Source: Escherichia coli (GTDB taxonomy: Bacteria; Pseudomonadota; Gammaproteobacteria; Enterobacterales; Enterobacteriaceae). Taken from it: DNA of 64,000 nt. The position numbers and the translations under genes are program-made. Shown piece after piece: positions 16,761 to 18,006 of the stretch. A model generated the notes under the pieces. The model did no database searches, had not been told where the DNA came from, and saw only the letters and a program-made list of their open reading frames with translations. The DNA is taken from NCBI RefSeq assembly GCF_016026235.1, contig NZ_CP065613.1; one strand, written 5' to 3'. The stretch's first letter is position 1; every line of letters starts with the position of its first letter.

Positions 16761-18006
16761 TGTTGTGGTCAACTAAAACTGGCCTCCGCGTTAGAGTTTT
16801 TCCAGTATCGGTTTTCTGATTCGTTTGGTGGTAACCCACCATTATATTCGTGCGGTCTTAGTGCGCTGTAATATCCAACGATATAGTCCGTTATTGCGTG
16901 AGCTGCATCGCTGAAGCTTACATAGCCCGTCGCTGGCACCCATTCGTTCTTCAGACTCCTGAAGAAGCGCTCCATTGGGCTGTTATCCCAGCAGTTTCCA
17001 CGCCGACTCATACTCTGCCTGATCCGGTATCGCCACAGTAACTGCCGGAACTGCCTGCTCGTATAATGACTGCCTTGATCGCCTGGAACATCACCCCGAC
17101 GGGCTTACCACGGGTTTCCCATGCCATTTCCAGTGCTTTCATGGTAAGCCTGCTGTCCGGCGAGAACGACATGGCCCAGCCCACTGGTTTTCTTGCGAAC
17201 AGGTCGAGAACAACGGCGAGGTACGCCCAGCGCTTACCCGTCCAGATATAGGTCACATCACCGCACCACACCTGATTTGGTTCCGTTACGGCGAACTGTC
17301 GCTCAAGATGATTCGGGATAGCAACGTGCTCATGACCGCCACGCTTATACCGGTGAGTCGGCTGCTGGCAACTGACCAGCCCCAGCTCTTTCATGAGTCT
17401 GCCAGCAAGCCAGTGCCCCATCTGGTAGCCTCTCTGGGTTGCCATTGTGGCGATGCTTCTTGCTCCGGCAGAGCCGTGGCTGATGCCATGCAGTTCAAGT
17501 ACCTGGCTGCGTAATACAGCCCGTCTGCCGTCTGGTTTTTCAGGACGGTTTTTCCAGTATTTGTAGCTGCTGCGATGGACCCCGAACACATGGCAGAGAG
17601 TGGCCACAGGATAACGCGCCCTGAGTTTCCCGATTATCGAAAACTGTTCAGGGAGTCTGACATCAAGAGCGCGGTAGCCTTTTTAATATTTCATTTTCCA
17701 TTTCAATACGTTGTAGCTTTTTCCTGAGCTCACGGATTTCAATTTGTTCCGGGGTAATGGGGGAGGCTTTTGGTGTTTTTCCCTGCCGCTCATCACGTAA
17801 TTGTTTCACCCATCGCGTCATTGTGGAAAGGCCGACATCCATAGCGCTGGCTGCATCTGCCACGGTGTATTTCTGGTCAACGACCAGTTGAGCGGATTCG
17901 CGTTTAAACTCTGCGCTGAAATTTCTTTTTTCATTATGGCACCTGTGTTGTTCTGAGGTGAGCATATCACCTCTGTTCAGGTAGCTAAATTTAGTGTGCC
18001 ACCTCA
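16761..18006 (-). mobile_element. IS911 (IS3 family), decayed copy
   Basis: IS911-type IRs at both ends; orfA/orfB homologues; three lesions described in findings. Confidence 0.8.
16769..17607 (-). pseudogene. IS911 orfB (transposase catalytic part), frameshifted after ..GKPVGVMF
   Basis: ORFs 17008..17607 and 16769..17011 are halves of one orfB. Confidence 0.7.

Follow-up and report, generated by a model that had tools for sequence, protein, structure and literature searches.

The damaged insertion sequences (IS) of the window, by which we mean the whole stretch of 64,000 nucleotides analysed here, most probably fall into two classes: old, immobile relics, and young elements whose frameshifts are doubtful. 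We put the probability of this two-class account at roughly 80%. An earlier note, made from the sequence letters alone, had described all of these elements as decayed IS copies and had left the choice between biology and artefact open. We found that the description fits the IS911-like element and the second copy of IS1, whose lesions are shared with other genomes and whose counterparts in E. coli K-12 are the insO and insB7 pseudogenes; for these two elements the question is settled as biology. It does not fit ISEc60 and ISSso6, which are near-pristine and whose same-locus orthologs are intact in the closest assemblies, and for this pair the balance leans towards artefact.

Window layout and closest assemblies

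The window is a piece of E. coli/Shigella-type chromosome with a heavy IS load (Table 1). The arrangement around the IS911-like element has a precedent, as a chromosomal shf locus beside fec has already been described in EAEC strain 042 (PMC2808357).

Table 1. Features of the window discussed in the text, in window order
Feature	Position	Strand	Remarks
fimD remnant			cut by IS1 copy 1
IS1 copy 1	4214-4981	minus	intact; truncates fimD; ~92.5% identical to copies 2 and 3
IS1 copy 2	6019-6786	minus	ortholog of K-12 IS1F upstream of fecI
fecIRABCDE	7023-14568
ISEc60 (IS4 family, IS10-like)	15361-16657	minus	recent insertion into yjhV-like ORF
IS911-like relic	16761-18006	minus	boundary of fec locus and shf-capU-virK-msbB2 module
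Right inverted repeat of relic	16761-16796	plus	1 substitution, position 25
Lesion (iii) of relic	17083-17084	minus	CACAGC to CA-GGC in orfB, just after ..GVMF
Lesion (ii) of relic	17679-17685	minus	A AAA AAG to A5G (plus-strand T5 at 17680-17684)
Lesion (i) of relic	17926-17931	minus	A7 to A6, immediately following the orfA ATG (plus-strand T6)
Left inverted repeat of relic	17971-18006	minus	4 substitutions in 36 bp
shf-capU-virK-msbB2 module	18172-22048
IS600 copy, then BCCT transporter, DUF2254 gene, acuR, IS2			downstream of msbB2
deoR-ribokinase-fucP-like block			between IS2 and ISSso6
ISSso6 (IS110 family), then nhaA, nhaR	35965-37488 (ISSso6)	minus (ISSso6)	upstream of nhaA; 1524 bp versus 1525 bp intact
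Fimbrial usher gene			cut by IS1 copy 3; then rpsT-ileS-carAB
IS1 copy 3	41455-42222	minus	intact; truncates the fimbrial usher gene

The nearest public assembly was GCA_900449985.1 (NCTC), which over the 41.6 kb compared is separated from the window by 1 substitution and 2 indels. Specifically, positions 1-20904 of the window align to it with 0 mismatches and 1 gap, located in a short run within ISEc60, and positions 30783-51468 align with 1 substitution (at 31485) and 1 gap, located in a run within ISSso6. We found no further indels relative to close relatives in the ~50 kb compared. The window holds 76 homopolymers of at least 6 bases (51 of 6, 20 of 7 and 5 of 8 bases), none of which differs in any region compared.

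As a side observation, the IS600 copy (22165-23426) is three bases (CAG) shorter, right after its A-run, than IS600 copies from two other genomes. Its ortholog in FDAARGOS_943 likewise lacks the CAG after the A-run, and IS600 orthologs are annotated as "frameshifted".

An ISEc52-type relic at the fec-shf boundary

The IS911-like element is 1246 bp long in alignment with intact copies of 1249-1250 bp. It shares 98.6% identity with an intact ISEc52-annotated copy, versus ~92.5% with copies annotated as IS911. In ISfinder practice, two copies count as the same IS when their nucleotide identity is about 95% or more. We named the element ISEc52-type because the IS911-annotated copies are so much less similar; judged by these identities, it is an ISEc52 isoform of the IS3 family (IS911 group) and not IS911 proper, the name that the earlier note had given it. 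Both ends were found and start with TG, in the form of 36-bp terminal repeats (5'-TG...CA-3'), and the 4 substitutions of the left repeat (IRL) lie at positions where IS911 and ISEc52 agree. No 3-bp target duplication was present around the element (the flanks are CCT and GAC), which fits recombinational replacement of one flank. The remnants of orfA and orfB are recognisable from PF01527, PF00665 and PF13683 on identical orthologous calls.

In the normal layout of IS911, orfA occupies phase 0 while orfB is in phase -1; frameshifting in the IS3 family uses a motif of the A6G type, and one added base fuses the two frames (PMC2909936, PMC6211511). The relic departs from this layout in several ways. 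The slippery heptamer, A6G in intact ISEc52, is reduced to A5G by lesion (ii), and the loss of one base at this site therefore puts orfB in the +1 phase; orfB is then split by lesion (iii), a one-base deletion of a non-homopolymer C combined with an A-to-G substitution. Through lesion (i), an upstream ATG (17964-17966) comes to share the reading frame of the orfA body, which keeps a 100-aa OrfA-like ORF open. All three lesions had been reported in the earlier note, and alignment to intact copies recovered each of them at or beside the place where it had been put. The further remark that several lesions are contractions of A-runs holds for 3 of the 5 indels; of the remaining two, one affects a G-run (in ISEc60) and the other is the non-homopolymer change of lesion (iii).

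All three lesions are identical in FDAARGOS_943, IAI39 and GCA_900449985.1, and E. coli 55989, which covers the 5' part of the relic only, carries lesions (i) and (ii). We drew lesion counts from a table of all fetched loci, in which 11 orthologous relics had come via AcuR look-ups. Among the 18 assemblies sharing the shf-side junction, both the A6 of lesion (i) and the A5G of lesion (ii) were found in 17, with one exception for the former and a different one for the latter; all 10 assemblies that have the junction on the fec side, K-12 among them, carry the deletion of lesion (iii). The junctions themselves are widespread, with the fec-side junction occurring in 2627 and the shf-side junction in 464 of the 5426 complete E. 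coli genomes, and RefSeq labels the relic orthologs "IS3 family transposase, frameshifted". Short-query matches in the band of at least 99% (which clipped alignments share) amounted to ~2300 records for A5G and ~2150 for A6G, and by this measure both alleles appear to be common. As the relic lesions are identical in many independently sequenced genomes, we judge them to be real; comparison of the sequences shows that they and the TAG codon of IS1 copy 2 are old, already-annotated pseudogene lesions and not sequencing errors.

Several further observations concern this locus. Of the orthologs CP057545.1 and APYN01000086.1, one has A6G at site (ii) and the other A7 at site (i), while both otherwise match the relic; these exceptions reflect either a reversion of the run length, the relic being neutral, or mistakes in the two assemblies. 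In NIPH17_0020, an IS30 is inserted directly after the slippery site of the relic (matching window position ~17675), and at the same site 2011C_3361 has no IS30 but an addition of three bases (GGCTACAACCGCG) that resembles the footprint of an IS30 excision. A plasmid origin of the junction between relic and shf was considered and rejected, given that one small plasmid record only carries this junction.

IS1 copies

All three IS1 copies are 768 bp long and keep the A6C site, and copies 1 and 3 yield a 232-aa InsAB'. In copy 2, the nonsense codon of insB pointed out in the earlier note is indeed present: a change from TGG to TAG at 6244-6246 stops InsAB' at residue 163 of 232. The FDAARGOS_943 ortholog of this copy is annotated with an "internal stop". 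Intact A6C sites and housekeeping genes had also been put forward as an argument against pervasive error. While A6C is kept in 3 of 3 IS1 copies, the argument is weaker than it looks, because errors that survive only in multi-copy repeats would leave housekeeping genes equally clean.

Private frameshifts in ISEc60 and ISSso6

ISEc60 is flanked by a perfect target duplication, a direct repeat of 9-12 bp (GGGGTCAAAGCC), and has the ends CTGAGG...CCTCAG. The short terminal repeats, the duplication and a DDE_Tnp_1 domain (PF01609 on the 396-aa ortholog) are those of an IS4-family element. The earlier note had placed a frameshift in this gene, there called IS10-like, within 16070-16085, and the change does lie in that interval: a contraction from G4 to G3 on the sense strand (C4 to C3 on the plus strand, CCC at 16078-16080) splits the transposase. 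In GCA_900449985.1 and GCA_031665325.1, the ortholog at this site encodes an intact protein of 396 aa, and the window copy differs from intact copies by the homopolymer contraction and one substitution only. One related genome carries the element at 38 or more places. In GCA_901482675.2 (at the ortholog of window ~14480-16650), ISEc60 occupies a site slightly apart from that of the window, inside the 3' end of fecE, where FecE has 246 aa versus 255. The insertions indicate that ISEc60 entered the same 1-kb interval independently more than once.

A similar picture was found for ISSso6, in what had been described as a frameshifted IS110-family gene. Here a contraction from T6 to T5 at 37087-37091 is the sole difference from intact copies (99.9% identity over 1525 bp), and the DEDD transposase of the IS110 family is recognised by PF01548 and PF02371 on intact 375-aa orthologs. 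The ortholog is intact (375 aa) in FDAARGOS_943, GCA_031665325.1, GCA_900449985.1 and CFSAN029787, the last of which is an EIEC strain of type O96:H19 (PMC10470518), and a short-read contig that reaches the site shows one gap versus the window there.

Two further observations concern the surroundings of ISSso6. The ISSso6 end has its first 163 bp twice in tandem (35804-35966 and 35965-36127, 100% identical), with a CACT microhomology at the duplication junction; the end in question is non-coding and lies downstream of the transposase. This duplication also occurs in GCA_900449985.1 (in a gapless alignment), and the segment is single-copy in relatives with other left flanks. Across ISSso6 (window ~35700-37640), an sgc/KpLE2-like block joins nhaA directly, a joint that GCA_900449985.1 shares. 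In E. coli K-12 the sgc/KpLE2-like and nhaA regions are on opposite sides of the coordinate origin, and in CFSAN029787 and FDAARGOS_943 the sgc side of ISSso6 is taken by hokC/mokC and dnaJ instead.

Consensus error or recent mutation

For the C3 run of ISEc60 and the T5 run of ISSso6, we somewhat favour consensus or polishing errors confined to repeats over very recent real mutations. Of the ~50 kb compared, ~2.8 kb of multi-copy IS sequence contain both indels, which makes uniform random error unlikely. Short reads cannot polish multi-copy repeats, and consensus errors could have survived there for this reason. Every orthologous ISEc60 and ISSso6 copy examined was intact, and repeat-confined consensus error fits the private status of the two changes, their location in young multi-copy elements and the ratio of 2 indels to 1 substitution. 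An exact-sequence look-up found neither the 244-aa truncated form of ISEc60 nor the 164-aa truncated form of ISSso6 on record; the exact 210-aa and 148-aa truncated forms are on record in other contexts only. Some points speak against error: the three IS1 copies, which are likewise multi-copy, show no difference from the NCTC assembly GCA_900449985.1, and the affected run of ISEc60 has only 4 bases, which is short for a typical homopolymer error.

A weaker but still substantial contender is that all lesions are real, including those of ISEc60 and ISSso6, and that in an IS-ridden Shigella/EIEC-like lineage slippage during replication at short runs is inactivating transposase genes. The relic lesions are certainly real, and the A-run lengths of the relic do vary between strains. 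Moreover, the G3 allele of ISEc60 was found in a paralogous copy in GCA_002950035.1 (another haplotype) and the T5 allele of ISSso6 in paralogous copies in five contigs, including one locus in two separate drafts, meaning that such contractions occur or at least get repeatedly reported. Dispensable transposase genes would also tolerate indels that are purged from housekeeping genes. This reading must nevertheless accommodate an indel-to-substitution ratio that is very high at so small a divergence (1 substitution in 41.6 kb, yet 2 indels, both in multi-copy sequence), the alteration of a 4-base run while 76 longer runs are unaltered, and the intactness of the orthologous copies. The occurrence of G3 and T5 in paralogs of other genomes also allows that the private alleles were copied from defective ISEc60 and ISSso6 paralogs, whether by gene conversion or through mis-mapped reads in polishing, and the locus-specific T that the window ISEc60 has at 16533 beside G3, where the paralog of locus L008 has C, would fit a short tract. 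We consider such copying unlikely, as the exact 210-aa and 148-aa products are not on record for the near-identical GCA_900449985.1 (a search in which an exact sequence match was required), so that a defective paralog of this kind is not evident there. Finally, 4 of the 5 indel lesions are one-base contractions of short runs, as would be expected if every lesion were a homopolymer sequencing error of this assembly. That possibility is vanishingly small: the lesions of the IS911-like element and the TAG of IS1 are identical across many genomes including K-12, IAI39 and 55989, neither lesion (iii) nor the TAG is a change in a homopolymer, and the ~50 kb compared contains no other indels. For the IS911-like element and IS1 copy 2 it is refuted, their lesions being common to independently sequenced genomes.

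Probable history of the relic

What stays constant among the orthologs of the relic is the flank on the fec side, together with the 3' part of ISEc52 type and its deletion. By contrast, the left flanks vary between shf, an AbiJ-like gene, a restriction-enzyme fragment and yjhE, and in orthologs whose left flank is a different one the 5' part is an IS911/ISEc52 mosaic with a varying IS911-type share. The varying left flank, the mosaic 5' parts and the missing target duplication together indicate probable homologous recombination between IS copies at this place. The relic may thus be best viewed as a fixed recombination scar, with a constant fec-side flank and a strain-variable flank on the other side.

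Within this scar, the one-base deletion in orfB would be the oldest lesion. The two A-run contractions would have come after it and probably still flicker in length in the population; they abolish the canonical start phase and the slippery heptamer for -1 frameshifting. Having lost this heptamer, and with a split orfB and mutations in its two inverted repeats, the relic should be unable to make OrfAB and is presumably immobile. The mutations of the relic and of the IS1F-type IS1 probably arose long ago in E. coli and may have been passed on vertically or with the island. Against a dating of the relic lesions stand the single exceptions with A7 at site (i) and A6G at site (ii), and recurrence or gene conversion blurs the order of events. 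Indeed, the IS911-type background (DLI.6n and the 5' part in K-12) also has A6 and/or A5G, and A5G was found in an IS911-type copy in the DUF2254 gene (strain E118) as well as in the K-12 5' fragment, which share their left flank. The slippery run would accordingly be a recurrent or converted target.

Possible residual functions

We asked what the relic could still do. It is improbable that it has been kept for its 100-aa OrfA-like product, a helix-turn-helix/leucine-zipper protein that would dampen the transposition of incoming IS911 or ISEc52. Lesion (i) does join the orfA body to the upstream ATG, every ortholog examined has the 100-aa ORF open, with gene calls giving a PF01527 product, and OrfA is known to regulate the transposition of IS911 (PMC2909936). 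However, the openness of an ORF of 300 nt is statistically uninformative, the C-terminus is changed by lesion (ii), the left repeat with its promoter region is mutated, and the upstream ATG lies very near its Shine-Dalgarno-like sequence.

More improbable still is that A5G (A AAA AGG, within the stretch ATATTAAAAAGGCTAC) allows +1 frameshifting, on a slippery Lys codon AAA followed by the rare Arg codon AGG. If this were true, the +1 shift would give ...LK-GYR..., i.e., an OrfAB one lysine shorter than normal, and otherwise intact A5G copies of the IS911 group would still make some transposase. It would not rescue the relic of the window, in which lesions (i) and (iii) remain. In E118 and S1-ISR-02-A, the annotation of the IS911 copy in DUF2254 gives a "programmed frameshift" and a protein (spans of 1168 nt), and in DETEC-P793 it reads "frameshifted" and the span is one base shorter (1167 nt); the A5G at the slippery site of this copy was confirmed in E118 only. 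A span of 1168 nt fits a +1 join and not a -1 join. We saw no sign of mobility of IS911-type A5G copies, all fetched copies being at one locus.

Implications for annotation

The relic lesions are known, ordinary pseudogene lesions, and for annotation purposes the IS911-like element and IS1 copy 2 are fixed pseudogenes, orthologs of K-12 insO and insB7, respectively. Two private frameshifts in multi-copy repeats, on the other hand, are what leftover consensus error in repeats would be expected to produce, and counts of "inactivated" IS or pseudogenes in this genome should not rest on the frameshifts of ISEc60 and ISSso6 without read support. The relic also suggests that slippage-prone A-runs, the programmed frameshift site included, decay first and flicker in length, and that such relics serve as recombination joints at island borders.

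Comparison with known elements

The ISEc60 and ISSso6 elements of CFSAN029787 (EIEC) and FDAARGOS_943 are multi-copy and have 99.8-99.9% full-length identity to those of the window, each of which is one base short by comparison; both strains also have ISSso6 at the same insertion site upstream of nhaA. IS1 copy 2 corresponds to K-12 IS1F, which has the insB7 pseudogene (b4576), in its position upstream of fecI and in the change from TGG to TAG, while six other substitutions in 768 bp separate the two. Compared with ISEc52 and IS911, the relic keeps the two-ORF layout, the PF01527 and rve domains and the 36-bp repeats ending TG...CA. It has lost the slippery heptamer, the start phase of orfA and the target duplication; its orfB is frameshifted and its repeats are mutated.

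The closest counterpart of the relic is K-12 IS911B, the insO pseudogene (b4623) of the KpLE2 region beside fecE. The right flank (yjhV-fecE) is the same as in the window, and the 3' part is ISEc52-type in both, the relic of the window being the ortholog of the 3' part of "IS911B-1". The K-12 insO annotation has its join of fragments 2 and 3 at the orfB deletion, over which the alignment shows no gap, although K-12 has CA-AGC at lesion (iii) where the window has CA-GGC. Compared with window positions 16654-18006 and 22165-22494, K-12 "IS911B" (NC_000913.3, 4507125-4509801) is a composite element. The ISEc52-type relic of the fec side makes up its 3' 795 bp, which are joined to the 5' part through IS30D and a 327-bp IS600 fragment that break the K-12 element and not the relic of the window. 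Its 5' 334 bp belong to another, IS911-type copy (90% identity, with A7 at site (i) and A5G at site (ii)) and have the same left flank as the IS911 insertion in DUF2254 of strain E118. The IS600 fragment of K-12 has its match in the IS600 beside msbB2 of the window, and the shf-msbB2 module, present in the window, is missing from the K-12 locus; from this arrangement, a deletion appears to have removed the DUF2254-BCCT-msbB2-shf segment from K-12.
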